In this document: positions 29,011-64,000 of the stretch, piece by piece
Numbering within the stretch: position 1 is the first letter of the stretch
Layout: each line of letters opens with the position of its first letter
Assembly: GCA_973895155.1 (NCBI GenBank)
Contig: OZ316891.1
Coordinates: forward strand, 32,375,208-32,439,207
DNA: 64,000 nucleotides
Source of the DNA: Marsupella aquatica
Lineage: Eukaryota; Plantae; Marchantiophyta
Direction: 5' to 3'
The notes under the pieces: generated by a model
What the model saw: only the letters and a program-made list of their open reading frames with translations
Told to the model about the DNA's origin: nothing
Databases searched by the model: none
Position numbers and translations under genes: made by a program

Positions 29011-29249
29011 GCATTTCTTAAGCCGTGAGATATGAAGTTAGAACGGAAGCGTAGGTAATGACTGACCTTACGCCGAGGGAAGAAAGAGTGATTCAACGGG
29101 AGAGAGCTCGACTGCAGCAGCTCGCCGGGTGGCATGATACACAGTGACTGAGAGGGGCAGAAAGAGCTGGTAGCTCCGAAACTGGAAGTGGCGTCGAAGA
29201 AGACATACCAGAGGAAGAGTCGGTAAGGAGAAGTGAGTCTCCAACCGAC

Positions 29250-31601: not shown

Positions 31602-32254
31602 CCGAGGTAATAGAAGATTGGGGTATAAAGCAGTTCACTTTCGGGACCCCCTCTATCACGGTATCCTGGGACACTAAGGATGACCGTAGGAAAAGCATAA
31701 GGGAAGTAGATGGGTACGATAGTGGACTGGAGTCAGCCGATGAAGTACGTTGGTTAGAATGCCTCACTAACCTAACCGAAGAAGGCGTCTTTGGACCAGA
31801 GGTACCCCCCAGCGGATTATGGCAAGAACCAATGGAAGGTGACTTGGAAGAAGAAGACGAAGAGGTCGAGGACTGCTTTACAATAGAATCCACCTTTTTA
31901 GCTGCAATTCCGGAGGAAGTAAAGGATGTAGACCAATTGGATGAAACGGCTAAGTGGGGAGCAGTAGCAGGGACAGTGGATTTTCTGCAGGCGTTGTGGC
32001 AGAGCCGACGGGGTCCACAACGCCATCGATCATCGGCAAGAAATTAAATACCAAGGGATCGGCATACAAGCCGATTACGAGGGCAGCACAAATTGAGGCC
32101 CTATTAGAAGCCGAGAGAGCACAGCGGCCTAACTCTCAGGAGCAAGAGGTGGATGAGATGGACAGACACGATCTAGAGCCAAGGCAGGAAGGGGAGCCGA
32201 CCACTAATTCAAAACCAAATAGACCGGTAAGGGGACAATCTATGGACACCAAGG

Positions 32255-33938: not shown

Positions 33939-36900
33939 ACAGGAATCACTCGACCGGTTAAGTGGGTAAAGCAGGAAGGCACCCTAGGAACACCTTAGTA
34001 TAGGGACAAAACCAGGAAAATATAAACAATTAGGGGCAACCATGGAACCCGGGCCGAGGCCGGAGGTAAGGCTGAGGGTGAAAACCCGATTAGGGTTAGG
34101 GCGCGTTAAGCGTCGGCGGCTAGGAAGGATCAACGGGAAGAAGGACCGGCAGAGGAGAGGGGTAAGGAGCGCTTGCATGAGATGGTGGCTCATTTGCGAG
34201 CACGAACTAGGCAGACGACTACGGGAGGCCAACTACTGTCAGCTGCTTAGGCAAGCACTCGGGGAGAGAGTAGATACCGACGATCGACCTAAGGAGGGTA
34301 TGAGCAACGTCAATCAAGCGGCACATTTCTGGGGATGCCTGTTCGAACGGGCAACTGAGTACATCAAGACTTACGAGGACGAGGAGTCAGAAAGGGCAGC
34401 TTGAGAACGGCAGGAGCTCGCTCGATTGTGGGAGCTGTAGAAGACGGCTTTCTTAGGAGGCAAACTCATCAAGGACGAGTTCCTGTGGACGCCTACTTCC
34501 AATCAACTCGACGATCTTCTGTTTTGCAAAGACAGCGTTGTCGGCATCCGAGAGGCCATCAAGAACTGCAACGACATACACTGGGAATTAAAGGGTAGCA
34601 CGGAAAGGTGGACCCGGGCAACGGTGCTAGGAGAAACCTCCACGGCAGCAGAGATGAAGAGGAAGGGGGCCGTCAACGATGAAGCCACCCCGGCAAAAAG
34701 AACGAGGTCGGCGGCACCAAAGAAGCCAGCCGAGCAGCAGAGCAAGGGGCAGGGAGAAGCCGAAGAGGAGGAGGTCGATCCCATCAAGGCCATTCCAACC
34801 AGGGATGACACCTGGAAGGGCAGGGCGGCAACCCTACCGGTGGAGGTGCAACTACATTTTGCACGGGAGGAGGATGCATGCTTTACGGCCATGCAGACCA
34901 AGAAGTACCAAGGCTTCATGGCCGGATCCGGCTTGGAGGCCTTTGTAAGATTACCATGGCTGAAGCCGGAGGTACCGGAGTCAGACCTATTAGAATTCGT
35001 GGGGTCATGGGAACCCGAGACCAATTGCACAAGGATATATGGGAAGGATTTCTATCTTACTCCCAAGGTAATTGCCGAAGTGTTTGGCTTGCCGATAGGC
35101 AATAAGACCAAAGTTGATACCAGGAAGACCTTGCCTGACAAGGAGTTCCGGTCGTTCCCCGGGCCATCAACGAAGAATGGCTTCTTCCGGAACACCTGCA
35201 CCAACCCGCACATAGGAGAGATGATCGACTTCTTGCGGGTGACCATGCATTGTAACTTGCCGAGGGCAGAGATCGGCAAAGCACAGGTCTATCTGGCAGA
35301 AAGGCCAGACCCAAGCCGGGACTACAACGGGTACCTCCTCAACCAATTGAAGAAGATCTTAAAGGAGGAGCAGCAGGTAATCGGCATGGGAAGCGTGTCG
35401 CGGCTTGGCTATCACATGCCGCTGTTGTGCCGGTATGCCAGAGGTCAGACTTTTGCCCCGGTACTTCCCCTGCAGGTAAGGGCACCCGAGGAAGCTCCAA
35501 CGCCGAGGCCGTTGGCTGAGAAGCCTCAACCACCTGTTAGTCCTACGATCGAGCAGGTGTTTAGGCCCAGGAAGGAAGACTTGCCGATGCAGCAACCAGG
35601 CATGCAGAGTCTGCTGAAACTACTGGAGAAAGAAAAGAAATCGGCATCGGCAACAACAACGGCAACGGCAACAATGCAGGACACTACTACAGAGGTAGGC
35701 CTACACCGGCTCACAAGAGAAAACCCCTTTGCTGGAGACAAGAAGAGAATCAGGCCGGAATCCAAGCCAGGTGTTCGAATGTACGTGGGAACCTCAAGCT
35801 CCGAATCTGAGGCAGAATTGCCTGAAGCTCCTACCGAGGAAGAGGAGAGGGAGAAGCCGGACGTCCAAGAGGTAGAGGAGGCAGTGGAGGACTGCAGCCA
35901 TGATAATTCCGACTATGGGTCGGACCATCACGTTCCAGGAGTAAGGACCTGTGGCCGGTTTGTCCCCACACTTCCAAGGGTAGTGCGAGGGGACCCCAAC
36001 CAGCAGAGTAGCCCTGAGTCTCCCCCACCAGATGTTGCTCCCCCGAGCTTCGACGGCATAAAACAGACGGTGCAGGAATTTCAGGAGCGAATCAAGCAGG
36101 AGGAAGAGGCCGCCCTGGCTAAGGAAAAGGATTTACCAGGAGGAGATTGGCCGGAGGACATCAGGCGGCTAGCCGAAAAAGGAAGCAAACCTCTAGCCAC
36201 GATTGAAGAGATCCGCAGGACGGCGTGGGAGCAGAGGCCACGATGGGCGATGCCGATCACTTCTACTTACTCCACCTACGCTAAGAATAGAGCCATGGAG
36301 TATGGTGAGATATGTGGGGAACTTGCGCTCGGCATCTTTGGAGAGGAGTTGGAGGTAGGACCCTTTTTTCATAGGGAGCAGTTGGAGAAGCACCAATTAG
36401 AAGAAGCGGTGGCTTTAGAGAGAAGCAAGAAGGACGAGGTCATTCGGCGGCTTAGGAGGATGGAAACCGAGATTGAAGATCTAAGGGCGGCCAAGAAAGC
36501 CCAAGATGAACTGCGGATTAAACGACATGAGCTGAACATCATGCAGGGGCAGTTGGACGCCGCGCAGGCTGATAATCAGAATATCAAGGATAAACTGACT
36601 CAGACGCAGGAAGAGTTGGCCGACACGATCAAAGAGAGGGAGAAGTGGAAGCAAGAGCTGAAGAATACAGAGGAGGCCCACATAACAGCCAACAGCCGGG
36701 CCATGGCGGAGACCCAAAGAAAGGAATGGGCGTTGAAAGGGGAGCTCGAGAAAATCCGCGGAGCCCTTGAGCAGAAGGAGGTCGAGTTAGGGAAATCCTA
36801 TCAAGGGATTATGGCGCTGCAGCAGGAGCTTGCGTCCCTGACGGCCAGCTTCAAGGCCGACCTAAGGGAGAAGGACGAGATGCTCGAACAGACTTACGCC

Positions 36901-38804
36901 AAGATGAACCAGATGGAGTCTGTCATCATTGCAGAGCTCGACAAGGAGCTAAGAGCAACCCAGGAGGAGAGGGCTACCTTGAAGAAGGAATTGGAGGAAG
37001 CCCACAGGGAGCAGGAGGAGGCCAAAAATGAGCTGGAGGGGGCACGTAAGGACCTGGATGAAACCCAAGAGGAGTTGGAGGAAATCACGAGGAAGATGGA
37101 GAACCTACAGCGGTGGGCCGACAACCAAACAGAGCGGCTGAAGAAACAAGCCGCAGTATTTAAATGCTTAGCTGCAGCAGGTCCATCTCCCGTTGGGACA
37201 AACCAGTTACCAGGGGTGGTAATTGCCGAAGGACAAGCCGCGTCAACTGCACCAGTGCCGGAAGTAAGTGGGAAGGGGAAGGGACCAGCTGCCGAGCCAC
37301 CAACGAAGAAGAAGCGGAAACCTTCAGGGTCAAGGAGTAATACGACTTCACAGGCCGTGGTGATCAAGGAGGTAGACCCAGCACCGACCCCAGACAGGGT
37401 CACGGCTAAGGATCCAACTACCCTAGGGGAAGGGGAGGCCGAAGCCGAGGGAGTGGCTGAAGCCGAAGCCGTGGGAGTGGCTGAGGCCGAAGCCGTGGGT
37501 ATTGCCGAGGCCGGTGTCGAGGCTGAAGCCGAAGGTGGACCCAGTCAGGCCGATGGAGAGTTGACTCGGTCAAGGGCAGGTAATCTGTCAATAGGCGGGC
37601 CAACGGCAGTGGCTGAGGAGGAAGTGTTGGGGGCGTCCATTGAGGATCCACCACCGGTGTCGTGACGGTGCAAGGGCGCCGTTCCTTTTAGGGAGTGGCT
37701 GAGGCCAAAGCCGTGGGTATTGCCGAGGCCGGTGTCGAGGCTGAAGCCGAAGGTGGACCCAGTCAGGCCGATGGAGAGTTGACTCGGTCAAGGGCAGGTA
37801 ATCTGTCAGTAGGCGGGCCAACGGCAGTGGCTGATGAGGAAGTGTTGGGGGCGTCCATTGAGGATCCACCACCGGTGTCGTGACGGTGCAAGGGCGCCGT
37901 TCCTTTTAGGGAGGGCGGACGTGGAGGGAGGAGGCGTGAGTGGGCAGGGCGGGCGCGGATCTCCACGTTTAGGATTAGGATCAGAACCAGGAGCGGCCCT
38001 GACACTTAGCTTAGTGGGATTGCGGTTCCACTGGTAGGAGCAACACTTGTGCTCCTGCCTTGCTGTACATAGGTAGATTCGGGCAAGTAGATTACTGTCA
38101 GGTAGATTAGGCTTACGATGCAAAGAATGGCGGATCCACTACCAGGATAAGTACCTGGGCAGCGGGGAGCTCAGGGCCTCTTCTTTAGCAAGTTTTTAGT
38201 TTGCACCAGCCGGGCTGGGATCAAGTAGTACGAGAAGCTCTCGGTTAGTCATACAGTGACCCTTGTGTATATTCATGTTTCCTCATGCCTAAGAGCTGAA
38301 TAGAGTTGGCCTCACGGCTTAGTTCGCAGAACTTGTGTATGAGATGTACTGTTTGTATGGCAAGTGCATGGTATGACTCAGTCAGAATGAGTCATTTTGC
38401 TATTTGTGTGTCGCATTAACTTGTGTGAAGAGTGCCCACATCAACAGAAGGAAGGAAAGTAAGCAGGGGAGTGATAGTTGGATGTGTCGAGCTGAGAGAG
38501 GTCTTAGCGGCTTAACCAAGCCTATTGGGGATCATTCCGGCGGCGGAATCCAAACATACCTAACAAGACGGAGGGGAAGATAGGGGAAGACAAGGGAAGG
38601 CCTATATTAGGCCGGCTACGTATCTCATGACCCGATGAAGGATCTGTCCAGTATATGTGTGTAAAATGTTAATAGTAGTAGTAGAAGGTTAGCAGCGTCC
38701 CATGCCGCTAAGCCGCGGAAATGGCCTCGCCAAGCACGAAACCTGCGGGAATCGGCTTGAGCTGGGGGGTTTCTTGGGTTTAGGGAGCCATGGGACGCAC
38801 CACA
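33927..38804 (+). repeat. 3' LTR (4878 bp)
   Basis: Direct repeat of the 5' LTR, with roughly 20-25 substitutions by eye. Confidence 0.95.
34042..37665 (+). pseudogene. LTR-encoded protein, 3' LTR copy with two nonsense mutations
   Basis: CGA>TGA at 34402 and CAG>TAG at 34438 relative to the 5' LTR copy. Confidence 0.9.
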
Positions 38805-46137: not shown

Positions 46138-47998
46138 GGTGTTGTCGGGAAAAATGTTTGACAATTGAAGTGGAGTGTGCTAGATCTAGTCGACTTGCTT
46201 TTGTCCGGCTCGGAATGATTTAGTTCTCTGTTTGTGAAAGAAAGAAACAAAGAGGAATGTGGCGGCCTGGGGAGTATTTGAATTCATAAGGACATGTTGG
46301 AGATGGCAGTTGGAGGCGCGGAGGGCGTTAGAGGGATTCTTGGGAAAGAGTTGAGAGGAATGAGGAAACGAGAAGAGGAAGGCGAAGGGCAAAATGGAGG
46401 CAGTTGAAAAGTGATCAAGTAAAGAGGGGATAAGGAGGACGGGAGGAATAGGGCGAAAAGCTTTCAAAGGATGATCTATGCGCTCAGAAGTTTAGAGGAA
46501 AAAGGGGGAGATTCAGCTGAAAGGAAATGTTGTTGTAGTGTGGAGGTCTTGAGATTATTTTATTTTATTTTTTTGAGTGGCGGAGGCATCAGTGGTCGTT
46601 ACTCATTTGGTCGTGACTGCTATGGAAGTAACAGAGGTGATTGTTATAGTGGAGGGAGTGGGTGATGAGGTTCGACGATGGAATAGAGGGAAAGAGAGGA
46701 AATTGTTGAACAAAAAGGGCAGTATGTGCTTGCGCAAAGGAAGGGAGAAAAATGAAATGAACTGAAAGAGGTCGAGAGAATGCGAACTGTGAAAGCAGGT
46801 GGTGGTGGTGAATGTGGATAAGATAGGAGGGATGCGTGCCTGACCAGACTTTGGACCCGGATTACTGCTGCTATTGTCGTGGTTGTGGATTGAACTGTTG
46901 TCACCCAGAGGCCTTCAATTCAGTTCAATTTTGCTGATGTCCTGCAAAGAGCAGAAATTGCCAAAGAATTTGTTGTTGGCCTTGGCTGAGGAGAGGAACT
47001 GTGCGACTTGTAGGGGGGTATTTACAAAAGACAGGAACCAGGAAACAGTAATAGGAAATAGTAATAGGAAACAGTTACTGTTACCAGGAGAATTGGAGGT
47101 AAAAACCAAAAAAATCAGACCAAAAAAAGGATTCCAAACAATCAAAATTAAAGCCCATTTGAGTCATTTTCATTAAAACAGTCTCATTCCGGACGAAATA
47201 TCCCGTTGGGTAGTCCGACCCAAATTTGCGATGATTACCAGCGCCTAGCGCTGGTATCAATGAAGCGAATGGAAAGCTAGTAGGGTTTCATAGAAGAAGG
47301 AAAAATTCAACAAAAATCTACGTAACCTCAATCGAGAAGACAATGAGCGGCTGAAAACGAGGCAATTCAAATCAAAAGAGGCAGGGTCATACAACAACAA
47401 AATCCGAATCTCATTGCTAGTTTAAACCATACATTGGAGATTGAAAACCATACATTGGAGGAATGTATGGTTTTCCTCTCGATGGCTCAATCTCCAATGT
47501 ACGAAAACCATACATTGGAGATTGAGCCAATCACAAATTCATTTACTTCAAAAATGGTTGAAAAAATATCACCGAGATTACATGGGCGACGGAAAGCAAT
47601 GAGTATAAGTAGCGCCCAACACTAGCTTAAAACTACAAATCCCGCCCTTCCATGTGTAACGCCATGGAGAGGAAAATGGGTCGATCCAAAAAGCATTTCC
47701 TATAAAAATGAGCAAAAACATATTACCCAGATTACCAAATCCTAACAAAACATTAAGTACTGAAAAACGGATATAGAAAGCATCCAGCTTTAGCAGCGCT
47801 TGGCGCTAGCTTAAATATAGCTACCTAGGAACCTAATCGCTGTAGGGTTGAACTCCAAAATAACCTAAGCGACTGCAATTGGAACACCTTTAGCTCTGTG
47901 ATTGACAGTCATCATCGACTCCCGCCCTCGCCCGCTTGTAGTTTTTCTTGAATCCTAAACCCCTGAGCCGAATATAATTGGAAGAGGGAACTCAATGC

Positions 47999-48340
47999 TC
48001 ACCATGAGCTTGGCCAGGGCCCCGCAAAATTTGCATCAAGGAAGTCGACGCGCCCCAATTGCTCTTGCACACGACGTTCAATGGGCTGCTGACCATCAGC
48101 AGGAACGACTTGATGAAATGAGAACCGATCGTCAAATTTGCGTGGAGTCTGTCGGTCACCAGTCCACGGAATATTTCTCTCCCCAAGACTAATCGCCTCA
48201 TCGTAAGGAAGAGAATTACGGTTCTGAAAAGTTGATGTCTCGGTCTCAATGTCGACACAAACTGATTCGAAGGAGCTAAAGTGGCTCTCCACCGGTCGAA
48301 CTCGGGAAGCACTGAAGAAGGCAAGCATCTCGTCCAACAA
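47999..48340 (-). pseudogene. Conserved unknown cargo ORF, copy 1
   Basis: SRVRPVESHFSSFES...LPYDEAISLGERNIPW...RRVQEQLGRVDF matches ORF 53872-54312. Confidence 0.55.
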
Positions 48341-48985
48341 CATTGGTTCCCTCCTCTCCATGTGGTCGCACCTAGCTTGACAATGTCCACACGCAGGTCG
48401 ACAACATCTGCACCTTAACGTCCGCACCCAGCTCGACAACGTTCGCACCTTGCCCTAAAGTCTGCAACCAGATTGACAATGTCTGCACATTTATCGACAA
48501 TGTCCGCACCTTTCTCGACCGTCTCCAAAAGGTTGACATAGTGACTACCAAAGGACGGTCATCGGTGGACACCCGTAACATGCGAACTTCAACGGGCAGA
48601 GGACCGTTGAGTAAACAATCAAATTGCGACACGATTATTTTGAAACAGACCCAACTTAATTAGGTAACGACAATATACGGATGGCAACAGGATGGCGACA
48701 GAACGCATGAACAATATTATGATGTAAAGGTTCGTGGAAAACTGTGCACATTTGGGGAGCACCCGACGCTACTAAACGAAGAGACCAATTTAAAACCTTT
48801 TATATAAGAAATACATGTACCTCGATAATAGCGCCCGGTGCTACTAAAGACAACAAGTGGTTTTTAGATTTTTATTATGAGCATATGAAATGAAATACAT
48901 GTCTTTTCATAACAGCACCCGGCGCTAGTAAAATCTGGAAAAGAAAAATACATCAATTATCAGTTTCAGATTCTGATCCAGAGCT

Positions 48986-51520
48986 CTATGATCTGTCGGG
49001 AGGGACTGCTTCGTCATCGACATACTTGCTCTTAGAAAAGTCATCTATATACGGGTTTCTAACAAACTTTCTGTCAACTCCTCTTCGAAGGCGGAGACCT
49101 TTGTTTTCCCAGCACAGAGTCCTTTGACTATCCTCCTTCCTCGCAGCGTTCTCAGCGTAAGACAAATGGTTTCTTCGATGTATCCATTTCAAAACGTGAA
49201 ACTTTTCTTCTGAGTTGGAAGCGCTTTCTGGTATTTCATTCGGACCTGGGTAGATAACCAAGTAAGACAACCAATTGAAAGATACAATGAATAGTAAAAA
49301 ATGCATGAAGGAGCTGGAAAAGAGAAAGAAGCTTACGAGTTTCAGAACATTACTTGGAAGAGTCATCGCTATCACTCTCGCCAGCAGATTGCTCCTTACC
49401 CCCCCTGAGTTGTCTCCCCGTCCACTTCATCTGCTGTCCCCCCACTTGACTCATCATCGGAGTCAAAATTAAGTACAGACCGGAGCTTGTCCCTCTTTTT
49501 CTTTTCCGGTGGTTGAATTGGGGGAGGCAAGGTTTCTTCTTCCTTAGAAGAGAGTAGATTTAAGAACACCTTGGAACCAGTTTCAAGGAAATCCTTCTGA
49601 TTCTCCAGTCCAATTACAAACCTCCCAAAATAGTCTCCGGCTACAAAAGAGCTACCCGAACCAACTGTCCAATCTATGAAAATGTCCCGAGGACGAGTGA
49701 TGAGCTCTATCACAGACTGCATGAATCCAACCGACAAACGGGCATTCCCTACGAATTCCATCTCAGGTGTTGGATCTATATTGAGAGTGGGAAACCCAAT
49801 TAAATTAGTGATGGAGGGATCTTCTATAACAGACAGAGGTCTAAACCTCAAGTCCTTGGGTACTTTCCCTTTATGAGATACTCGGCAAAAGACGTCTAGC
49901 CTAAGCATGAATATCTGCGAGATAAACCAAGAATGATATGTCATTCCATGCATTCATACACATTCTTGAGTGTTAAAAACAGAGATCATGACTTGGAATT
50001 TACCTGTCGGTCAGTCTTTGGAGCATACATAGGAACTGAAATAACAACATTGTGTGTTGAGATGCAATGAAACTTCTTTGATTCTTGACATGCGGATATA
50101 ACCTGAGACATAGGATCGTACTCCCCATTATGCAAAACTGCTAGCATTCCGTCATCTGATAAAAATGGGTCCATTCCATGAAAGAACGATGTTGCCAGTG
50201 TGTGGTCGGGGGTATTCCATTTCGAGACTTTTCTATCTAGCAGCAATGGTTTCAGACCAGTAGGAAGGTAAATGAATCCTGCGTGTACTCCAAATGATCT
50301 TTCCTTCCCCCCATTGACAATTCCCTTGTCTCGATATCCCGACTTCATGAGGTCCTTTGCCCATTTCTCTACACCATTTACCCAGTCAGGCTTCTCCTCT
50401 TTGTTGAACGTTGTGTCATAGAATTCAGAGATGCTAGACTCAACCATGCAATGCCTTGAAAGAGTGTTTTTGACCAACTTCTCGTTGAACACCTGTTGCA
50501 GCCGCACTTTCCCGAGCGGAGGATGATCCACCTTCAATTGCCCTTTTTCGCTTCTTTCTAGTACTAATCGCATCTACTGGAGCAATTGACTTCCCTTTCT
50601 CGACGGGTGTAAGTGGGTCAGATGGAGGCCCTGTATTGGCTTCAGATGCCTCTGGGGTGGCATCTATCTTTGTATCGCCGCTGCCTATGGCGTTTGACTT
50701 TCTCCCTGCTCAAATGGAAGGCGATGTTAGAATTTGAGCGGATGGAAAATGCAAAGTATACTAACGCCCGGCGCTGGCCAAATTTCTTGAAGAGATGGAA
50801 GCAAATATAATATATATATATATATATATTCATGGAACAAATGAGACAAATGAAATCTAACATATATTGAATGGCATAGCAGCACCAGGCGCTAACCAAA
50901 GAACTACAAATTATACTTACATTTTTTCCCGAACCTTGTTGATTCACTTGGGACAGCAGTATCAGCTTTCCCTTTTGCGCGAGGCTTTTGGCTTCGGTCA
51001 ACGTGAACAACTGTGGTCTCACAATTCATTTGCAATTCTGTTGTGGACTTATCTACATCATCTGCTAGTCCCTGCTTCATGTCAGAAACAATATTGACTG
51101 GTATCTGGGACTTAGAGAGCTTGTGGAAAGCATCCTTTTCTCGGTGATCAAAGGGCGAGTCCCATCTGTCTGTATCTAGGTACCATGGACAGTGGGTTCT
51201 CTCCCATTCACTTAAAGGTTTCGCTGGGAAAATTCCCTCCGCGGGGTACATAGAGTACAAATCAGATAAATTGTCGCCTTCTGATATTACTGTCCACTTC
51301 TGAAAGGTGGCAGGATATGCCCAGAAGTAATCAGGTCTAGTTACTTCCATGTGGATGTAAAATCAGTAGAGATACCTTTTTGCTCGCTTCTGGTTCTTGA
51401 AAGTCCTCTTTGTCCGGATACTTTGAGGGCCACATTGTATTAAAAAACTTACTCTTCACCGAGTCTCCGTATCTCTTGAAATCATTCGTAACTATATCAA
51501 TGAGAGCTTTGAAAGATTCA
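48986..51520 (-). pseudogene. 3' half of the ParB-MTase-like gene, copy 1
   Basis: ORF pieces 51337-51537, 50904-51350, 49986-50573, 49396-49953 and 48986-49375 are homologous to 55133-57600; motif IFIDWTVGSGSSFVAGDYFGRFVIGLE; several frameshifts. Confidence 0.75.
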
Positions 51521-51690
51521 TGTGACGCCAATGACATGGTTCTTATTTTGTAATCTGATTAAGTAGGTTGCTGTATGCAAGGAGTAGCTATTGATATTGC
51601 TTAACAATTAGCAAGATGGCAAGAATGAGGGCAATCATGACGTTAAGAGTAGGGAAATAAAAGCTATGTCGCGGGTGATTGATGATCACA
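51521..51690 (+). repeat. Fragment homologous to 20240-20375 and 20698-20737 (CACTA-associated region)
   Basis: TGTGACGC..ATGACATGGT.CTTATT...GATTAAGTAGG...GCTATGTCGCGGGTG is shared. Confidence 0.8.
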
Positions 51691-51907
51691 TCTCTTTCAA
51701 TATGTCACCAAATCCGGATCTGTAAAGAGCATTGGAAAGATCTGGTCAAGGCGAGTAAAATTGATATAAAACATTCGAGAAACGGAGGTGTATTAAGAAA
51801 GATACGGCCTGATTAGTGTGACGGGTTAACTTGTGGCCGGAATTAGCGGATTCGGCTTCAGTTTCGGGTTAACCCAAGCTCGACCACGGCTTAGCTTATG
51901 TGAGCAT

Positions 51908-52074
51908 GGCTTCAGCTTAGCTCAGGTCAGCACGGCTTTAGCTTAGCTCAAGTAAGCACGGCTTCAGCTTAGCTCAAGTCAGCACAGCTTCAGCTTAGCT
52001 CAGGTCAGCACGGCTTTAGCTTAGCTCAGGTCAGCGCGGCTTCAGCTTAGCTCAGGTAAGCACGGCTTCAGCTT
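51908..52074. repeat. 26-bp minisatellite, 6 copies plus a partial
   Basis: Unit GGCTTCAGCTTAGCTCAGGTCAGCAC, flanked by degenerate GGGTTAG-rich sequence (51820-52320). Confidence 0.9.
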
Positions 52075-53871
52075 AGGCTTAACCCGGGTTCGGACTAGAT
52101 TGATCCCGGGTTAGACTTAACGCGGGTTAGCCTAAACTCGGGCTCAGGTTAGCATAGGTAAGCTTGGGTTCAGGCTCAGCTTAGGCTAGGTTAGCGGATA
52201 GCGGATAGCGGGTAGCGGGTAGCGGCCTAACCCGACACCACGGGTTAGCTCTACTCGGGTTAGATAGGATAGCTAGGTTAGCCAAACTCGGGCTAGCTAT
52301 GTAACTCGGGTTAGTGCAGGAGTGAGTACCCCCTCTCGGTTGCGGGGGCATAACTCTCTGTGTATTTGACCAAATCGGCTATAATTAACCTCGTTGGAAA
52401 GAGGAGCTCAAGCCACTTCCAACGCTGCTATCCACGCAGCAAATGGTTGAATAGAGAAATCAGGAGAGGAGGTGCAAGCTCGCAAAAACCATGGAGGAGG
52501 GCCAAATCCAAAGTACATAGCCAATTTGAGATAGAAATAAAGCTGCGAGTTAGGGTTCAGTAGTTAGAGATAGTGGCGGCTCTGTTAGGGCTGGGATGGG
52601 GCTCCAGCAGCGTAGCATCCACCCATTTGGGCTCAAGGAGAGAGTATATAGAGCAGCCCCCCGGTAGAGGCAGGGGGGACTTCAGTTGTGTGATCTCACT
52701 TAGACTGAGCAGCAGGGAGGAGCTCTGTGCAAGCAAGGCTGGACTTGGACGCTGCGTGTTGGGGAGAGCTTGGTGGTGCTATTACTCAGGGAGTAATCAG
52801 CCAAGCTTCACAGCAACGGGTTGCTAGGTTTGCGAGCTGGATTGTGGCTCTTTCTAGTGGGCAGCACAACTGGGTTCTTTTCCCCCGATACAGAGCCTTG
52901 GTGATAGGTGATGTATTGGTGATTGTAAACTGTGGGGAGGATGTCGATTTGATTTGTGGTGAGTACATTAGGGAGGAGGAGACATTGATTGAGGGGCAGC
53001 AGGAGGAGCATTTACAGTTCAGTCTGGCAAGGCTACGTGATCCATGGGGAGTCCTGGCCTTTGTCTGGTGGAGAGCACTAAGGGATCTATGGCCAGAGCG
53101 GAGCTTGCAGGGCAAGCGTGAGGCCGGGCCTCATTGCAATCTGGGGTAGACCGCCGTTAGGGGGGAATTTACAAACGACAGCAAACAGATAACAGTAATA
53201 GGAAATAGCAACTGGTACCAGTTAAAAGGAAACAATTACCAGTGAACAGTGTTTGGATGGTCGTGAACAGTGATCTTAAAAAAAGGTCTCAAAATCTCCA
53301 TTTGAAAGTACAAGAATAGAAAACAAAACCACCAAACCCTCGTGATAAATAAAAGAACAACACGGAAACAATTTTTTGAAACATAAAAGACGGCTGCCAA
53401 TTGAGATACACAAAATCCAAGACAAATACAAGTAGAAAAGAAAGGCCGGAATAAACATTCGCATATATTATCGCAAAATAGAAAACGCGCTCGGCTTAAG
53501 TGATACAAAATGCAGTTATCAACATCAACAATCTGGCCTAAAAATCCCATCCATGAAGTCACAGTCGACACTGTTGGAGGTTTTCGACTAATACATGAAC
53601 AGCGCTCGGCGCTAGCCAAAAACTAACTAGAAAACTAGTCGTTTCTTGGAGACAAGATGCGTCCAAACCTAGACAACATAGTCAAGATCCATTCCCTCCC
53701 ACAAAATCCGTTGTCGTTTCAATAGCGCCCGGCGCTAGCCAAAACCTAAATAGTAGACAACCGGGAAAACTCTAACGCCAGAGCTGAGGTCGACTTCAAT
53801 GCCACAAAATCCGGAAAACTTTAGCAGCGCCCGGCGCTAGCTTAAAGCGATCAGCAAAACGAAATTTCCAT

Positions 53872-54312
53872 CTAGCTTTCCGAGTTGCAATCATCATCCA
53901 CTCCTGCTGCTTCTCTCCGCCGATCTTTCTTGAAGCCGAGACCACGCAAATGAACGTATCCCTCTAAAGGTCCTCGATGAACAGCCCTCGTAAAATGTTC
54001 AATAGGAATATTACTGTCCTTAAAATCAACTCGCCCGAACATTTCTTGTACTCTTCGATCGATTGGGAGTACCCCATCAACAAGAACTCCCGGGTGAGAC
54101 GAAAACCGACTAGAGAACGGAGGCACAGGGGAATCGACAATCCAAGGGATGTTCTTCTCTCCAGGACTAATAGCCTCATCATACGGGAGAGCATGACGGT
54201 TCCAAAAAGTGGAAGTTTCAGTTTCTTTAGTCTCCATCCGTGATTCAAAAGAGCTAAAATGGCTCTCTTCCGGACGCACACGAGAAGGACAAAAAGCTGC
54301 CTCCCAATCCAT
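53872..54312 (-). CDS. Conserved unknown cargo ORF, copy 2
   Basis: 146-aa frame conserved at the protein level with 47999-48340; the start or exon boundary is uncertain. Confidence 0.55.
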   Translation of the reverse strand: MDWEAAFCPSRVRPEESHFSSFESRMETKETETSTFWNRHALPYDEAISPGEKNIPWIVDSPVPPFSSRFSSHPGVLVDGVLPIDRRVQEMFGRVDFKDSNIPIEHFTRAVHRGPLEGYVHLRGLGFKKDRRREAAGVDDDCNSES

Positions 54313-54479
54313 TGGCTCATACTAACTCGCCATGTTTCAAAGATCCTGATCTAATATGTAACCTCTCCTCCCGTAAGAACGTCGTCCGCGAGTGCTATAG
54401 CCGACAAAGGTCAAAGAAAGGTCCGCAAAGACTAAGACACCAGATAAAGGTCCGCGTACACTACCGTTCCAAAACGACC

Positions 54480-54780
54480 ATCAAACTATCATCGTCCCAT
54501 TCTATTGCCTCCCAAAACTATCTTCGCCTTGGTAACAGGTATCGTCCCGTTCTATCGCCCTGCTCTAACGTCTCGTTCTATCATCTTCCCCGAAACAAAG
54601 TCTTCCCAAACAAACTATCGTCCCGTTCTATCGTCACGTTCTATCGTCCTCCCAAAACAAAGTCTCCCCTCCCGTTCTATCATCCCGTTCTATTGTCCCG
54701 TTCTATCGTCCCATTCTATCGTCCTCCCGAAACTATCGTTGTCCTCAACTATCAACGTCCCCAACTCTCGTCGTCCCGAA
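54480..54780. repeat. Degenerate 14-bp repeat array
   Basis: Unit TATCGTCCCGTTC(T), more than 10 imperfect copies. Confidence 0.8.
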
Positions 54781-55132
54781 TAAACCTAAACTGAAACTAT
54801 AGTCGTCCCTTCCGCCCGGTCCCTAAACTATGGAATCATCATCCCGAAACTATGGTCCCCAACGGCTTTCCGACGACTGACTAAAGAACACAATCCAAAT
54901 GGCAGTTGGTATCCAATGACGATGACCGTTGACAGGAAACGACAAAGACTAAACGGCCATTTAGAGATTCCATTTGGCGAGTGCCAGGCGCTTGTAAAGA
55001 ACAGAAGTCAAAAGTAATCAACAAGTAGAGAGAAATCAACAATTTAAAAGGACCCTCAGCAGAGGGAAATAATACAGATGTTACAAGCATCGGGCGCTGC
55101 TAAAAGATTTAGCCTCAACTACCCACTACTTC

Positions 55133-55440
55133 TCACGGTTCCAAAGATTCTGAGTCGGAACCAGAATCTGTACTCTGGGATCTGTCCGTGGACACAACCT
55201 CATCATCTACGTATTGGCTGCGGGAGAAGTCATCAACATAAGGATGTTTAATGAACTTTCGGTCAACACCCCTTCGTAACCAAAGACCTTTGTTTTCCCA
55301 ACAAAGTGTCCTTGCACTTTCTGCTTTCCTTGCGGCTTTCTTTGCATAGGAGGGAAGAACAAACAGTTTTTCCGGTGTTTCTACGTTGTGTCTCGCGATC
55401 TTCCTCCGCAGTTTGAATCGTCTCCTTGCATTCCACTCTG
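55133..55440 (-). CDS. Probable terminal exon of the ParB-MTase gene (unknown domain)
   Basis: RTLCWENKGL.LRRGVDRKF...PY.DDFS conserved with 48986-49250. Confidence 0.5.
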
Positions 55441-55546
55441 ACCTGATATAACAAAGTCCATTTTGTAAGGCGCCTTTCCCCAAAACAACAAAAGAAATGT
55501 TATGAATTGACGGGAATGGAGAAAGAAGCTTACGAGTTTATGAACA

Positions 55547-58500
55547 TTACTCGGAAGAGTCATCACTATCGGTTTCATCTGCAGCTGCACGACGCTCTCC
55601 CTTTTCCTCCTCGGAGTTTCTTGTACCTTGTTCCTCTCCACCTTCACTCGATTCATCATCAGAATCAAAATTGAGAACCGACCGAAGCTTATCTCTCTTT
55701 TTTCTGTCGGCAGTAGGAACAGGTGGAGGTAACACTGCAATCTCTTTGGGAGACAACAAATCCATGAAAACCTTTGAAGCGGTTTCAATAAATTCTTTCC
55801 GGTGTTCTATCCCGAGTACAAATCGTCCAGAGAAGTCGCCAGCAATGTAAGAGCTTCCAGCCCCAGCAGTCCAATCCATAAAAATATCACGAGGTCGTGT
55901 GACAAGCTCTATAACAGATTGCATAAAACCCACAGACAGACGAGCATTTCCAGCAAACTCCATTTGCGGGAATGGATCTGATTTGAGCGAAGAGAGTCCG
56001 ATCAAATTGGTAACCAAAGGGTCCTCACTGATGGACAGCGGCCAAAATTTGGGGTCTTTGGGAATTTTACATTTCCCATTAATTCGGCCAAATATGTCGA
56101 GCCTGAGGGTAAACATCTCTTGGTCTGTCTTTGCCGCATACATCGGGTCAGACATCACAACATTATGCGAGCATATACACTGAAATTTCCTTGACTCCTG
56201 ACAGGCAGCAATGACTTGCGACATGGGATCGTACTCCCCATTGTGTAGAATTACAAGGAACCCATCATTTGAAAAAAATGGATCCATGGATTTGAAAAAA
56301 GATCTAGCCATTGAGTGATCTGGAATGTTCCATTTAGGAACCTTCTTATCAATGATAGATGGTTTGAACCCGATCGGTAGGTAAATGAAGCCGGCATCCA
56401 CTCCAAACGATCTTACTTTTCCCCCCCGAACAACTCCCTTCTCTTTAAATCCCAACTTAACGAGGTCTTTTCCCCATTTCTCCACATCACTAACCCACTC
56501 GGGCTTCTCCTCCTTGTTGAAGGTCGAGTCAAAAAATTCAGAAAGGCTTGTCTCAACCATGCAATGGCGAGACACAGTTGTTTTGAAGTTTCCAACTTCA
56601 CGTTGGAAACCAGAAGCTATAACACTCTCCCTTAAAGATTGTCCACCTTTGACAGCTCTCTTTCGTTTCTTCCTGGTACTCGTGGCGTCGATAGAAACTA
56701 TAACCTTCGCTTTGTCGACTGGAGTAATGGGGTCCGATCGAGCTCCCATGTTTGCCTCGGAAACTTCAGGTGTAGCATCCTTTTTCGTATCTCCCGTTTC
56801 CACCGTATTAGACTTCCTCCCTCCTAAAATATAACCAGGTTGTAGTTAGAATAAGTACTTTTAAAGTATTGAAAGAAGCTAGCGCCTGACGCTAACCAAA
56901 TGCAATTCACTTAAGTCGCAACCGAAGCCTAATAACCAAGAAAGAGAACAACCCTCAACAAAATATTTTTTGCCAGCGCCTGGCGCTGGCAAAATCATGG
57001 ATAGCAATACTTACTCTTCTTTCCAGATTTAGTAGACTTGCTCGGTGCTGCTAGCTCCGCTTTGGCTTTCGCGTGAGGTTTGCGACTCCGGTCCACATGC
57101 ACAACAGTTGTTTCACAGATAGTTTGCAAGTTTGTGGCAGACTTGTCTACATCGTCAAGTAGACCCTGCTTCATGTCGGACACAAGTTTTGTTGGCATCT
57201 GAGACTTTGAAAGCTTATGGAAGGCATCTTTTTCCCTTTGATCAAAAGGAGAATCCCATCTATCTGTATCTAGATACCAGGGGCAGTGAGTTCTCTCCCA
57301 TTCTGTCATTGGTCTCGGAGGAAATATGCCCTCCGTGGGGTACATAGAGTACAAATCAGCCAAGGCATCATCTTCACTTATTGAAATCCACTTCATAAAA
57401 GCTGCAGGATATGCCCAGAAGTAATCAGGTTTGGTTACCTCCATGTGCATGTAGAACCTATACACAAACCTCTTCGCTTGCTTCTGGTTTCTCTGGGTGT
57501 AATCTTCTTTGTCAGGGTACTTTGAAGGCCACATAGTGTGAAAGAACTTATTCTTCACGGAATCACCAAATCTCTTGAATTCATTTGTAACAAACTGAAC
57601 TAGATCATCAAACGAACTACAATTCCACTCTTCCAATCTATTCGCGGGCATGGTTTGCTCAACTTCACGTAGACATGAATGTAACATGCCAGCAACAATT
57701 CCCTCCACACTATTCCAAGTGATCCAAGTGTGGCACCACTGTTTGACTGGATCATCGTTAACACTTGCTGGGTGAAAAAACTGTCTCCGCAGCTCAGGAT
57801 TGCAATGTGCCACAAGTAAAGTGCTTCGTAACTTTGGGTCTAGAGCAGAAACAGCGGTGAACAATCGTGCACGGTCCATCGTACATACAACGGTGTCAGG
57901 CTTCTTCTCTCTCTTGTTTCTCTATGTGACAACATACATTTCTGCACATGTACTGAGGAAATCTTCAAATTCAGGACTTAATAAGGGCGTAATTTTTGAA
58001 GACTTCACTGCCCAATCTTTGGTTGCGTCTTTCATCATGGCCGCATGCCGTTTTGAAATCTCGTCCGCCAACCATGGACTCCCTTGAGCCTCCGCTGCCT
58101 CCATGTCGAGTTTGAATTGATGCGAGTACGACTTTATCTTATTCTCACAAAGAATGTAAACAAGTGCTTCTTGTGGCATCTTCTTCGTATACCATGACCC
58201 CTTCCGAGTTTTCAGCCGAATGCTTTCAAACTTCTTGAAATTACCCGGGTCAATCAGTTTACTGTAATACTCAAGGTCATGCGCCAGAATTCGTTTGATT
58301 CTGTTCGCATCCAGGATCCAGGAAGGCTCTACAACTGCTTGGCCAAGCCTACACAAACAAACGTTGAGAGTAAGAGTCAATGAAAAACAATTCATGTATA
58401 AGCAACGCCGAGCGCTAGTAAATACAGCACTCGCAAGATTTAAGGAAAGAACTGGAAATCATGAGAACTTACTGATTCACGGTGTGCATAGCTGCCTCAA

Positions 58501-59038
58501 TTTCAATGAGAGATCCCTTGTCTCCTTTAAATATTGTACAGAGCACACGAGGATGATATTTTGGATTGTCCGGGTTCTCCTCTGTTACAAGCGTCCAGGA
58601 GTACAGCCTGTGATTTCCATCGAATACAGAGAACATCTTATCCTTCAAGACGAGAAAATCTGGGTCAGCCTCGCATTCAGCCTCAAACTTCTCGTTCTCC
58701 AATTGCCATATTGGATCCCATGAATCACGAATGTCCTGGGTACAGGTCAGAACAATTCCGTTCTCATCCGTTGGCTGCACATAGAAACGCATCCCTATCG
58801 AAGAGTTGTAACCCATACTACGAAAAGAGTCTTTCAGCTTCTCGATGGAAGAGCTGTCTTTCTGCAGAGTATGAACCACCTCCATGTGAACCAATCGACA
58901 CAGAGGGATTCAAGGCGGCTCCTTGTCAAATCCATGAGAATCCTTTCCAAAAGACATGACATGTTTTGAAATGAGATCAATCTCAGCAAGCACGCAATCC
59001 GCAACATCCTGGATCGCCAGTGTGTCTACGTTGTCCAT
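55547..59038 (-). pseudogene. Spliced ParB/Srx-like plus helical region plus beta-class N4C/N6A DNA methyltransferase-like fusion gene (two in-frame stops)
   Basis: Exons ~59038-58473 (IEKLKDSF...GY...VFDGNHRL), 58348-57015 and 56823-55547 join in frame over GT-AG introns. The last exon has VIELVTRPRDIFMDWTAGAGSS..A....GRFVLGIE (motif X-I-II pattern). Stops at 58910-58912 and 57922-57924. Confidence 0.72.
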
Positions 59039-59483
59039 CTTTCTTCACAAAGGATTTGGACCCAAAACACCGCTGACAGAAGTGAGCGGCAACAACTTTG
59101 AGGAACGAGTTACACGACGTGTATAGACTGAACCAGTAAACGAAGACTGCGAAGATTCAGAATAAGCTCGCTCCTGGTCATGAACCACACTATACCCTCT
59201 GGAAGAAGAGGGGAATACCTCCATCGTCCTTCTAGAAGCGTACAAACTATCGTACAATGAAATTATGGAACTATAATCATCTCTGAACGTGTAATATATT
59301 CTAGCGGGAGGATGACATAACCTAGAGGAAATCCATTAGCTCTGGTGTTTGGCGGTTTCCAACGTCTGTATACGGAAGGTTTAATTACCAAAATCAAATG
59401 GTAGAAGATGCGTAACACACACGGAAGTCATAAGTTACCGTTGAATGTTACCGTTAAAGACATTTCCTAACATCATATCAATA

Positions 59484-59910
59484 CTAGCGTCGGGCGCTAG
59501 CATTAATGATGACCATCAAGGTGAACAATTTAGAGTATGCTTATAATAGCGCCCGACGCTAGTATAAACTGGAAGAAATTTAGAGGTCTTTTTGGAAGGA
59601 GCTATAACATAAATTTTGGCCTTTCCACCCCCATATTTTATTAAAGTATCCTTCAGTACATCGTTTACGGAGAAATATTTCTCAAATGTAATACTAGCGC
59701 CCGGCGCTAGTATAAATGTTCATTTATCATCCATAATCCATCAAAACCATCCTTTGAAGGCACCATTTATTCCCAATTACCACCTGGTATGTGGTCATAA
59801 TGTTCATTTTCAGGGAATTTATTCTATACTAGCGCCGGGCGCTAGTTTGGAATGTCGAGATTTCAGACACATTTTTAGTGGCGTATTTTAGTTAGCGCCA
59901 GGCGCTACTA
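59484..59910. promoter_or_regulatory. Cluster of five AGCGCC-N-GGCGCT palindromes in the divergent intergenic region
   Basis: Copies at ~59484, 59546, 59694 (ATACTAGCGCCCGGCGCTAGTAT), 59828 and 59893. Confidence 0.65.
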
Positions 59911-60185
59911 AAATTTGACAATACCTTGTCATATCTTATGGTCTGTTTAAGTAAGGTTGGTGATCTTTTTAGCAATATGTTCGTGTCTGACATCCGGACT
60001 TCTCGGGGAAAAAATGACAAAAATCATTTATGGTGCCAACGGATCCTCCATTGTCAATGTTTTATGTCGTATACAAACGGATCGGTTAACGTCAAATTCC
60101 CAGGTTCGACAGATATAAGCTGAACAATACCATGAACTTTTCTTCTTTCAAACGCTATAGCCCTCGGTTTTTGTTTTTGTTCACC

Positions 60186-63100
60186 ATGTCTCGGTCTATC
60201 GTTCTTTCTCGATTCAGTTCTGAAGATATTGTGACTATCCCCGTCCCCATGGAAGATACGTACAAGCAGGTCCGGGAGAGGTATCTCTGCGGGAGATTTG
60301 ATTTGAAGATGAATGACATTGAGGCCATTGTTCAAGAGCTCAAATCCATTGATGATATCGAGGATGCTGCAACGTTCAATGTCGATGACGATGAACGGTT
60401 TTGGCATCTCTACGCAGGGATCTCGTACTCGGTTCATTTAAGATAGCATGCAGGACTGTCCAGTTTCCCGCCGGTTCCATGTGATGTGGTTGAGATTTCT
60501 TCAAGTGAGGATGGAGATCGTACTCTAAGTCCACCGTCGAAGAAGAAAAGCCCGCTCCCCGCTGTCGTGAAAGCTGAGACTCCGGGAAGCTCTAAGCAGT
60601 TGGAGTTCGTGTACCGGCGCAGTGCGATGGATACGTTACTCAAATCAACTGGTCATAGTGAGTTGGCACGGTTCATATCAGCGGGTGATTTCAGGCATGA
60701 ACAAGTGTCCTGTCTGCCAACTAAGTACAATGGTAACGTCGTGTTTGAGTTGTCGCCCATTGATAAGATGCTCTCTAAAGGCTCTAGGCTTAGGGACATG
60801 GATCGTGCCAAAGATTGTTACATTTGGACACGCATATTTCCAACAACTGCAACTATTCATCCTAAAAACCTTTGGCAGTTTGGGAAGGTTACCTGTACGG
60901 GATTCATTGAATGCAGGAACAAGTCCTGCGACTATTTCCAAAGGAAGAAGAAGGCAAATGCTAAGGCATGGCAGGGTACTCCAAAGCTCAGTGGTCAGTA
61001 TGCTGTGGGATCTTTCATCGAAGAGGGAGGTGTTGTTTGTCATTACTGCGAACAGATTCCTTTTTGTGTGAAGTACTGCCCTGCCCGTTTGTTTTACATG
61101 TACCCCCAAGTATTACTTGATGCGGAAACATGTAGTCATATGTCCCGCCTGGCAATTCATATAGGTGAGCACAACCATCCAGGTAGAAAAACCTTCTGTA
61201 GGAGTGCGGAGAAGATAGCTGAGGATCTAATTAAAAAAAACATGAAGCCAATCCTCTATCAAAACCGGCAGGGATCTTGAATTCTGCTACAGGGTCCTTA
61301 GTGAAATCTCTCTGCGAACATGTTGACGACATGGTCGATATCGAAGAAACTGAAATGTGGAAGTCTTTGATGGTCCTTTCCACTCCGCAGAAGTTTGCAT
61401 CTCTTTGTCGGAGCGTTAGATAGACCAAAAAGGTCGGGGTGAATTAGATTTTCCCTCGCAAATGCAGAGGAAAATTCATGTGTCGTTTCTCCAGAGGTAT
61501 TTGCTTCCAGGTCAGGGATGTCAGAACGATAGGCCTCACATCTTTAAAATGACTGTGAAAGGTCACGGTTCCGGTGTGGATCTTTTGAGGCAGATGCAAT
61601 CGGGTGGAAGACTCAAAGGAGCCTGGGTAAGTTTCGATGTGATGCAGCATGTCACCACGGATTGGTTTACTTTCAGCGCACACGTCTACGACCACAATTT
61701 CCGTGCACTGTGTACAATTTTCACATGCGAGTTGAAAGGTGAAGACACTGAGTCTTTTGAAAAGGCATGGAGAGTGATGATTGAGGTTTGCAAAGAAAAT
61801 GAACTTCAGGAGGTTGTCATCCAAGGATTTATGGCCGACAATGCACAAGTTGGATGGAATGCAGTGCGAAATGTTTTTTTTGTGGACACCCGGACCCGGA
61901 GAGGGAGCGCTCTGATGCATTTCACTTTTATCAATCTTTTCATTGTCATTCCAAGGAAGGAGTACTGGAAGAATGTCAATCGGAGCATCGGAGACTTTGG
62001 GAGAAACTGAGAAATGCTCCATCATTTGTGGCAGCATACCGGGTGTCCCGAGAGATTGTTGTGTGGTGGCAATCAGGAAACTGTGTCCCCGGAAAGCTGA
62101 AGATGCTGCAAAGCTGGATATCTTGGTGGGTTGTTTGCTGGCGCCAGTGGGGCAATTTTATTCAAGTGGTAAGGCATCCATCTATCTAGACTGTAATGTT
62201 CATCAACTTCATATTAGCGCCAGGCGCTGGTTATTTTCTCCATACACGTCAAAACAAGTAGTACAAGAAATTGAAGCCAATATGTAGTTAGAATTCAGTA
62301 TTAAACATTGAAATTGTATTTCAGGCCTGTTCTACATATTTATGTTGCCAGCGCCGGGCGCTGGTAATAGAATACTACTTACGGTTGACATTTTTGTATG
62401 GCAGAGCAAAAGCGCTGAGGAAGGTGCCTTGATCCCCAACTGTACAGGGTCAGAATCAAGGCATGCGTCCATGAAAGCCTCGGCTACAAAGAAAAAGGTC
62501 GGTCTTTATGAAGCTTGCGAAGTTGACCAAAACCATGCTCTGTCTCAAGTTGCCGGATACAGTGCATACCGTAAAGGCTTGAACCGGGGGAAGGGGCCAA
62601 CTATATGGGAATTGGCGTTCCATTCCGCCGATCAAGCAGGTTCGCCAAGATTGTTTGAAGAAGCGACTAATATGCTTCTATCTAACGCAGCAGAATTCGA
62701 TTTGGAAAGAAGTACTCCCCTGAATGGAGATATAATGACGAAGTCAATGAAGAGGAAGGGACATGCAACTGGGACTGTCTCTCCACAAGATTCCCATCGG
62801 CATGACACCGTTCTAATAACCACACCAAATACTCGTGGTTTGAAAAGGAAGAACCTGAACAGATCTGACTTTTCTTCTATTCCCTCAAGTTCTGATCATC
62901 CTGTCACAAAGGCGGTGAATCTCTCAGGTATGGTCACATCAGAGAGTGATACTGATTCACTGGACTATACTCCTCAAACAACCCAAACAACAAGATCCTC
63001 AAAACCTCCGCTCAGTGCCCCAGCAGCACTTCAGAATCAACTTCCACGCACGATTGTGCTAGAGAAGGATGTCCCTCCGGGGCAGTGGCAGTTGCAATGG

Positions 63101-63934
63101 ACATCGAAGTATGGAGCAGGTCTGCAATGCAATGGTACACTGAATGGGAGTTTGGATCGCGATGAGTGTCGAAATCGTATCAAGAAGGTTGGCTTCCATT
63201 CGTCTGAAGGTGTTGTCGGAATTGTCGTGAAGGGCCATCGTCTCTTCAGGGGCGAACCCGTCTCCGAAATGATTTGGTTTTGCCCAAACCAAGCGTGTTA
63301 CAAGAGTCATCCGCGTCGTGGTGTTCAGAAGCTTCCTCCTTTTCCTGACATTTTGCCTGTTCTGAAGGGTACGAGCCTGTCTCCTTCTGAAATTACATTC
63401 TTGGAAGAGCAAGGACTTGTCTTAGCACGAACAACAAGATTGAGTCGATCTGCGCCATCTGCTTTTGACCTCAGGATAAATGTTAACGTGTTCCCAGAAA
63501 CAATAAGGTTTTTGGAGCCAAATCTCCGACTTGGTAGTCGGAATGGGAGGAACTCAAGGCCTCGGTCTAATCTCACTGTGGGTCACACAAAGCGAATGGA
63601 GTCTGCACGACAAGAAGTGATGAGTTTGGATGGGGAATGGAATGTTCAGACCGGAAATGCTTTTGGAAAGCAATTTCGAATTCGAACCCATGAGAACCAT
63701 CGATCACCAAGCACATACTTTGTCCAAATCTGTATCTTCCCCGCTTGCTCTTGTGAAGACTTCTTCCTCCGACATTCGCGTGGCAAGTCGTACATGCCTT
63801 GCAAACATCTATACTGGGTGTACATAAATGTTTTCAAACTTGAGATTGAGGAGTCGACTCTTTGTAGCCAACCTATTTTGACTTTAGGCGAAGTCAGGCT
63901 TGTGCTGGAGAGGCAGAACTTGAATGGCTTATGA
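60186..63934 (+). pseudogene. MULE-type transposase: GCM/WRKY-like Zn domain, DDE core, C-terminal SWIM finger
   Basis: CTGFIEC.NKSC...CHYC...CPAR...HIGEHNHP; VSFDV, GFMADNA, AFHFYQS and GSESRHASMK (D, D, xxH, E); CSCEDF...PCKHL SWIM. Intron 62169-62404; stops at 60444 and 61421; frameshifts in the A-run ~61235 and T-run ~61878. Confidence 0.8.
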
Positions 63935-64000
63935 GAGAGATCGAAACTGCCCAACAGGTCGTCGTTCAATATAACGGTTATTCCCTATTTTGTCTTTTTC

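Follow-up and report, generated by a model that had tools for sequence, protein, structure and literature searches.

A dead liverwort transposon with a ParB-like and pseudo-methyltransferase fusion gene, whose product may bind the element's own dispersed palindromes

Can a plant transposon encode a protein that recognises the element itself? The question is raised by a gene on the minus strand of a 64,000-nucleotide stretch of the genome of the liverwort Marsupella aquatica (contig OZ316891.1, positions 32,375,208 to 32,439,207; here the window), for which a preliminary description proposed that a DNA transposon carries a fusion of a ParB-like domain and a bacterial-type DNA methyltransferase, as a module for binding or marking its own DNA. 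To our knowledge, self-recognition and de-silencing by plant transposons are known only for VANC, TnpA and a few transposases. We find a dead land-plant transposon (copy B, Table 1) with a fusion gene of ParB/sulfiredoxin (Srx) type and pseudo-methyltransferase, here called the accessory gene, and we hold with about as much confidence as doubt that its product binds palindromes dispersed through the element. The best reading of the protein is a transposon-encoded self-recognition factor, not a canonical writer of N4-methylcytosine (4mC) or N6-methyladenine (6mA), and its role is probably anti-silencing.

The strongest feature of the element, absent from the preliminary description, is its array of palindromes. 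With up to two mismatches allowed, AGCGCCnGGCGCT has 22 matches in the window, where 1.53 are expected and none of 100 shuffles reaches 22. They span 47240 to 62362, with none in bases 1-47000, and in the extended consensus, WWRCY-AGCGCC-N-GGCGCT-RGYWW, the flanks stretch the symmetry to about 23 bp. All 22 fall in non-coding DNA of the element, which makes up 36% of copies A and B (P ~2e-10), given our own putative exon map, which includes the transposase intron of Table 1. Accessory-gene introns 1 and 2, the intron of the transposase-like gene, the left arm and the DNA between the genes all contain them, and this distribution ties both genes into one unit. Five are within the 1.4-kb region that separates the two genes, and others are near the left end. 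The two in intron 2 are conserved in position between copy B and the diverged copy A, in an intron that aligns at just 51% and between copies with saturated synonymous sites. The array gives independent support to the idea of self-recognition in the preliminary description, with binding as the prediction.

Homologous metagenome loci (L001-L004) were also compared. Intron 1 of L002 has another palindrome, ATCTCGGC-N7-GCCGAGAT, with one exact copy and one near-copy (by eye), and intron 1 of L003 has a similar one, which is as expected if motif and protein vary together. Seventy-five phage loci with one exact palindrome had no protein match to the gene and were put down to chance.

With regard to the gene itself, three exons had been described as joining in one frame through GT-AG introns. 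The introns and the joins stand: the spliced frame from 59038 to 55547 has 1058 codons, and no donors but these keep a single frame throughout (with acceptor 56824 or 56821). However the frame is not open, as there are premature stops at codon 43 (TGA) and codon 331 (TAG), so the copy B gene is a pseudogene and an intact gene in this copy is rejected. Both stops are of the type one would expect from C>T decay. The two protein motifs noted earlier, VFDGNHR and ELVTRPRDIFMDWTAGAGSS..GRFVLGIE, are both found. So is the second, diverged copy of the methyltransferase half, with 61-69% amino-acid identity between copy A and the exon-3 region; copy A also retains the 3' half of exon 2 (71-76% amino-acid identity), reaching 51516, and is without the ParB half.

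Homology backs the splice model. All four metagenome loci have intron 1 beginning at the same codon position, L003 runs on into exon-2 homology, and the Riccia gene models P0086 and P0088 have an exon-2-like WERTHCPWYL segment joined to the methyltransferase domain (by eye). An ENA contig of 7196 bases is listed for an exon-1 relative (P0096) and for relatives of both halves of the methyltransferase (P0043 and P0030), a hint, though no proof, of linkage in a distant genome. Within the methyltransferase domain copy A is interrupted in frame by a GT-AG intron at about 50003-49915, where copy B has none, and since many homologue fragments start or end at residue ~179, the site of this intron, copy B has probably lost an ancestral intron. 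In both copies a donor-like GTAATG lies over the annotated stop (55550-55442 region) and is followed by a conserved coding segment in ambiguous frame; the gene may thus have a fourth exon, and the segment may be that exon or a small separate gene.

The C-terminal half has only a weak Pfam match to N6_N4_Mtase (E 1.7e-3), and in Atlas N6_N4_Mtase is in 10 of the 10 best matches. A phmmer search gave 84 relatives, and 63 of these, with two cluster members and the query, make up alignment A1 (66 rows), the hidden Markov model of which matches M1.HpyAVI and CcrM in the PDB (E 3e-7). The AlphaFold2 model of the domain has a predicted local distance difference test score (pLDDT) of 92.5, and Foldseek aligns it with M1.HpyAVI (E 4.6e-13), CcrM (3.8e-12) and PvuII (2.7e-9), and also with RsrI and the bdelloid N4CMT. 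The motifs are in the order IV...I, with the catalytic half first and the half that binds S-adenosylmethionine (SAM) last. The domain is, as modelled, a beta-class amino-methyltransferase fold, and the prediction made from the SAM-binding end is supported.

Motif IV, (D/N/S)PP(Y/F/W), is the established catalytic motif of the amino-methyltransferases, and its aromatic residue stacks on the flipped base. It is absent from all 39 rows of A1 that cover it: the first position is D or S in nine and lacks D, N or S in 30, the aromatic residue is missing from every row, and in place of DPPY the window reads YLPI. The register was set by the strand ending at residue 90 of the model and by aligning DPPT of P0047 to what we take to be the start of the PF01555 profile. 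In motif I (xDxxxGxG; DWTAGAG in the window) the glycines are kept in 32/40 and 36/40 rows, and the motif II acid (Asp or Glu) in 34 of 39. In this alignment the family has lost canonical motif IV while keeping the SAM-binding motifs. The preliminary description had cited the SAM-binding end, which is present, but the catalytic motif of the same domain is degenerate; with motif IV missing from every covering row a canonical 4mC/6mA writer is rejected, and DNA marking of this kind is unsupported. Six Riccia proteins that retain the Asp (DPPT, DLPS, DMPT) form one clade with support 100/99, in a tree built from those 32 rows in which the N-half sequence is sufficient.

Between copies A and B the nonsynonymous divergence (dN) is 0.17 over 474 codons with synonymous sites saturated (pS 0.79), so the degenerate domain has been kept by selection, and by this comparison the gene evolved under purifying selection. 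Searches of phage and plasmid sequences by tblastn gave weak methylase matches only. Weak Pfam matches, among them TRAPP, NRN1, PyrI_C and, on a copy A fragment, Anthrax_toxA (E 0.025), were taken as chance.

The N-terminal half is more difficult. DGNHR is invariant in all 11 aligned exon-1 sequences, and the family has the ParB/Srx arrangement of helix-G-strand and then hhDGxxR, the nucleotide-binding motif of that superfamily. Five of the 11 match PHROG ParB-like (best E 0.054), three the DGQHR domain (E 0.033) and one DUF1015, and the Atlas clusters for one relative, P0090, give DUF3723 at 0.95 (31% of members) and ParB_N at 0.93 (11% of members). For the pLDDT-51 model of this domain the four longest of the 50 structural alignments listed are to KorB, Spo0J and two Srx proteins. 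When the domain was compared by hhalign with a profile made from 20 divergent ParB_N members, the probability was 7% for the unedited domain, and 80-84% with a 42-column insertion removed (score ~35 against a shuffle maximum of 14-18, both segments collinear), a deletion chosen post hoc, after viewing the alignment; only deletions of this insertion raise the value. Alignment A2 gave five weak matches (E 0.03-0.08) in 301 proteobacterial genomes, and the ParB alignment found no match among the PDB sequences. ParB/Srx ancestry of the N-terminus is likely, on moderate and convergent support, while canonical ParB function is unproven.

Two bacterial loci from GTDB (L005 9362-10822 and L006 2964-4418) encode related proteins with an HNH-like N-terminus and VFDGNHRL, unrecognised by Pfam. 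These have only the VFDGNHRL stretch in common with our protein, lie beside C5-methyltransferase-like open reading frames (ORFs) and have no Pfam ParB match, and they were set aside; they are possibly an undescribed component of a restriction system. The fungal DUF3723 proteins (Starship cargo) cluster by features with the ParB-like domain, a hint that they too could be accessory proteins of ParB/Srx type.

That the gene sits in a DNA transposon, as first described, is supported by the transposase-like gene on the opposite strand and by the left end common to copies A and B (47011-47077 and 53158-53224, 84% match). In runs X1 and X2 the contigs diverge from the window at 53161, which places the insertion point of copy B there; its right end is outside the window. 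Both genes are covered by thousands of contigs at 85-99% identity, consistent with their belonging to a multi-copy family, and none of the matching contigs spans the accessory gene to the transposase-like gene. Ten of 30 relatives have an organism name, and all ten are from liverworts (five Calypogeia fissa and five Riccia sorocarpa). Word-index searches, which are weak evidence, gave no long homologues of exon 3 or of the transposase N-terminus, and viral contigs yielded nothing related to either the ParB exon or the transposase.

The transposase-like gene looks by eye to encode a Mutator-like transposase. It has three one-base frameshifts, near 61232, 61418 and 61881, and at each of them contigs of other copies have one additional base. 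The SWIM match has E 2.8 and there is no PF10551 match; hhalign against 19 bacterial proteins with the domain of Mutator-like elements (MULEs) falls on the second Asp, without beating shuffles. Matches from a PDB search with the N-terminus were dismissed as chance.

We suggest that intact copies would encode an accessory protein of ~1060 amino acids, and that a dimer of it would read the two-fold-symmetric AGCGCCnGGCGCT in every intron and intergenic stretch. With the sites in the element's own non-coding DNA, the protein would coat its own family only. The methyltransferase fold, predicted to bind SAM yet catalytically degenerate, would read DNA or serve as a scaffold, and nucleotide-dependent dimerisation or spreading would be the task of the ParB-type domain. 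As with VANC/VANDAL, the likely outcome would be to shield the element from CG/CHG silencing by the host or to activate the divergent transposase gene. We infer binding, the identity of the binding domain, anti-silencing and spreading from the gene structure, fold, motif loss and purifying selection and from the enrichment, placement and positional conservation of the palindromes. A fuller version would be a parS/ParB-like system in land-plant transposons, in which the pseudo-methyltransferase reads the palindrome, a nucleotide-gated ParB-type clamp spreads, silencing is averted and motif and protein co-evolve; as a whole this is doubtful and we offer it tentatively.

Beyond the post hoc deletion in the hhalign comparison, several results weigh against the self-recognition reading. 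The ParB-like N-terminus of the preliminary description has its convergent matches, but exon 1 has no Pfam match to PF02195 (ParB_N), and hhalign against chromosomal ParB gave <1%, edited or not. The AlphaFold model of the domain has pLDDT 51.5, and the four structural alignments above have Z of only 3.1-3.5. Pfam scans of the accessory protein, exons 1 and 2 included, found no helix-turn-helix or other DNA-binding domain. Among the four homologous loci L001 (intron cut short) and L004 have no related palindrome. Every one of the 17 palindrome mismatches is a C>T or a G>A change, and because of this the sites in copies A and B look methylated, not protected. Finally there are predicted zinc-binding domains in the transposase-like protein itself, and AtMu1c, an Arabidopsis MULE transposase, is reported on its own to bind, activate and hypomethylate its family without accessory genes (10.64898/2026.08.24.746577); the transposase could therefore be what binds the palindromes. 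This is the main rival reading, with the sites serving transpososome assembly or self-activation and the accessory protein a separate cofactor or chromatin scaffold, and the clustering of five sites between the genes and of others near the left end would fit it. However AtMu1c binding, as described, is at terminal repeats, whereas here many sites are in internal introns of both genes, which is the VANC pattern, and the published red-algal inverted-repeat arrays adjoin the ParB gene. We consider transposase binding unlikely, though the likeliest of the rivals.

Methyltransferase activity might persist through a non-canonical site, or in the Asp-retaining clade alone, and write a self-marking 4mC or 6mA at the palindrome, the core of which contains CCNGG and GCGC. 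The fold is complete, the SAM motifs are kept, the six Riccia proteins keep the Asp, and 4mC writers are reported for Marchantia and bdelloids, but the total loss of the aromatic residue and the absence of D, N or S at the first position from most rows, those of the window's own clade included, make this improbable. It is harder still to credit that the palindromes are hairpins or host-factor sites (RNA stem-loops, cruciforms or transcription-factor sites) with the accessory protein uninvolved. Three that were folded do give stable stems (z -3.2 to -5.3), in keeping with the long symmetry, but the primary sequence is fixed over all 22 sites with the central base free, as is typical of a site for a dimeric protein, some sites are outside the genes, and there is no Rfam match. 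Least probable of all is that the element passively carries a captured gene and that its repeats are neutral local duplications: both copies in the window are broken, as cargo might be, but dN far below dS between the subfamilies largely refutes it, the intron position is kept in all four loci, and the motifs are dispersed without common flanks and kept out of coding DNA.

Table 1. Features of the two element copies in the window (positions within the window)
Feature	Position	Strand	Remarks
Element copy B	53160..64000	.	left terminus, small ORFs, ParB/pseudo-methyltransferase gene (-), transposase-like gene (+)
Exon 1	58473..59038	-	ParB/Srx-like domain (likely ancestry); DGNHR ~58621-58607; insertion of ~42 amino acids; premature TGA 58912-58910
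Intron 1	58349..58472	-	GT-AG, phase 2, 124 nucleotides; one palindrome (58404); position kept in L001-L004
Exon 2	57015..58348	-	middle region; premature TAG 57924-57922; no Pfam match
Intron 2	56824..57014	-	GT-AG, 191 nucleotides; palindromes 56881 and 56975, both position-matched in copy A intron
Exon 3	55547..56823	-	beta-class amino-methyltransferase fold (modelled); YLPI ~56383-56372; DWTAGAG ~55876-55856; acidic tail
Conserved coding segment 3' of gene	55133..55442	-	matched in copy A 48992-49340
Further ORF near left end	53872..54321	-	partial match in copy A, 48160-48312, 74% DNA identity; no Pfam match
Transposase-like gene	60447..63934	+	Cys/His-rich N-terminus, D..D..FH core, SWIM-like C-terminus (by eye)
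Inferred transposase intron	62169-62404	+	two palindromes inside
Palindrome starts, copy B (1)	53601, 53724, 53826, 54980, 55086, 56881, 56975, 58404		
Palindrome starts, copy B (2)	59486, 59548, 59696, 59831, 59894, 62216, 62350		
Element copy A	47013..51516	-	diverged subfamily; truncated at 51516; left end and gene order as copy B
Palindrome starts, copy A	47240, 47795, 48758, 48830, 48914, 50763, 50881		

At the same place in their left arms the two copies have unlike tandem repeats, of 13-bp units at 54491-54749 in copy B and of ~35-bp units at 48368-48512 in copy A. Copy B inserted into a repeat of very high copy number (51521-53159), which includes a tandem array of 26-bp units at 51863-52102 and part of which matches 20240-20374. 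Elsewhere in the window a Ty3/gypsy-like element is present in several almost identical copies (13155-16820, 24172-27849, 34441-37665 and 29148-33938), which bear an extra ORF of ~1220 amino acids without significant Pfam match; an orphan ORF of 830 amino acids at 10070-12562 is related to it. On the minus strand at 3817-6844 are ORFs of 333 and 473 amino acids with Cys/His motifs and no Pfam match, which look like another DNA-transposon gene set.

How, then, does the element compare with known systems? A close parallel is Sola1-1_Ec32 of the brown alga Ectocarpus, which has a 1104-amino-acid ParB-like and N4C/N6A methyltransferase gene opposite the transposase, with similar proteins cited for green and red algae (PMC12477816). 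Compared by description, ours is alike in having a ParB-like domain and an N4/N6 methyltransferase domain in one gene, on the strand opposite the transposase-like gene and of about the same size (1104 and 1058, or ~1100 amino acids), and for the algal protein, too, binding to its own element and modification of it have been proposed. The differences are that Sola1-1_Ec32 is a Sola-1 element of a brown alga whereas ours is a land-plant element that looks Mutator-like, and that the accessible text of that paper describes neither catalytic loss nor a candidate binding site.

In a preprint on Bostrychia, ParB accessory genes of Plavaka and Mutator elements are described with arrays of inverted repeats beside them (10.1101/2025.02.11.637652). 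The red-algal PAG2/PAG3 cassette, which also occurs on Mutator and Zisupton elements, resembles our system in pairing a ParB-like accessory protein with inverted repeats proposed as its binding sites. In PAG2/PAG3, however, ParB is fused to a 2-oxoglutarate oxygenase and the methylase to SET in a separate gene, whereas here ParB and methyltransferase fold are in one gene, and the PAG3 repeats are adjoining tandem arrays where ours are single palindromes through all the non-coding DNA. A categorically new architecture is rejected, ParB-methyltransferase accessory genes having been described already in Ectocarpus and in green and red algae. As to novelty, on which the preliminary description had asked for a check, the ParB-methyltransferase architecture is already in Sola1-1_Ec32 and ParB with repeat arrays in Plavaka, but a land-plant version was not found; nor did we find literature on catalytic loss in the family or on the palindrome, in a coverage that left out most subscription journals.

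Among the methyltransferases, M1.HpyAVI, CcrM, M.PvuII and the bdelloid N4CMT have the same fold and motif order, but they are active enzymes and the transposon family is without canonical motif IV. Marchantia DN4MT1, like N4CMT an active host enzyme, is set apart by description, as it keeps TSPPY, acts genome-wide and has no added domains. For inactive methyltransferase domains in mobile elements there is a precedent in DIRS1 (PMC4738411). The fungal DUF3723 proteins are also mobile-element cargo (10.1101/2021.12.13.472469), but their feature-based clustering is only a lead, and the accessible text of that source mentions no methyltransferase domain.

A functional parallel is VANC/VANDAL of Arabidopsis, a Mutator-type element, as ours looks to be by eye, with an accessory gene and family-specific short non-coding motifs, where VANC21 binds motifs in the introns, intergenic and terminal non-coding regions of VANDAL21 (PMC5735166); in our element too, family-specific motifs are enriched in non-coding regions. 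The VANC motifs differ in being of 8-9 bp, non-palindromic and in tandem repeats, the accessory protein has no sign of VANC homology, and VANC function is demonstrated whereas here it is inferred. In the literature covered we saw no version like this one, from a land plant, catalytically degenerate, apparently Mutator-like and with a candidate site that is defined. The accessory genes of ParB-methylase type in algae are as yet predictions and lack a tested site, and this element offers a sharply defined candidate, in a land-plant branch that lost canonical catalysis under purifying selection. A vague idea thereby becomes open to a simple test of binding and methylomes in liverworts, and a sequence-specific epigenetic tool could follow.

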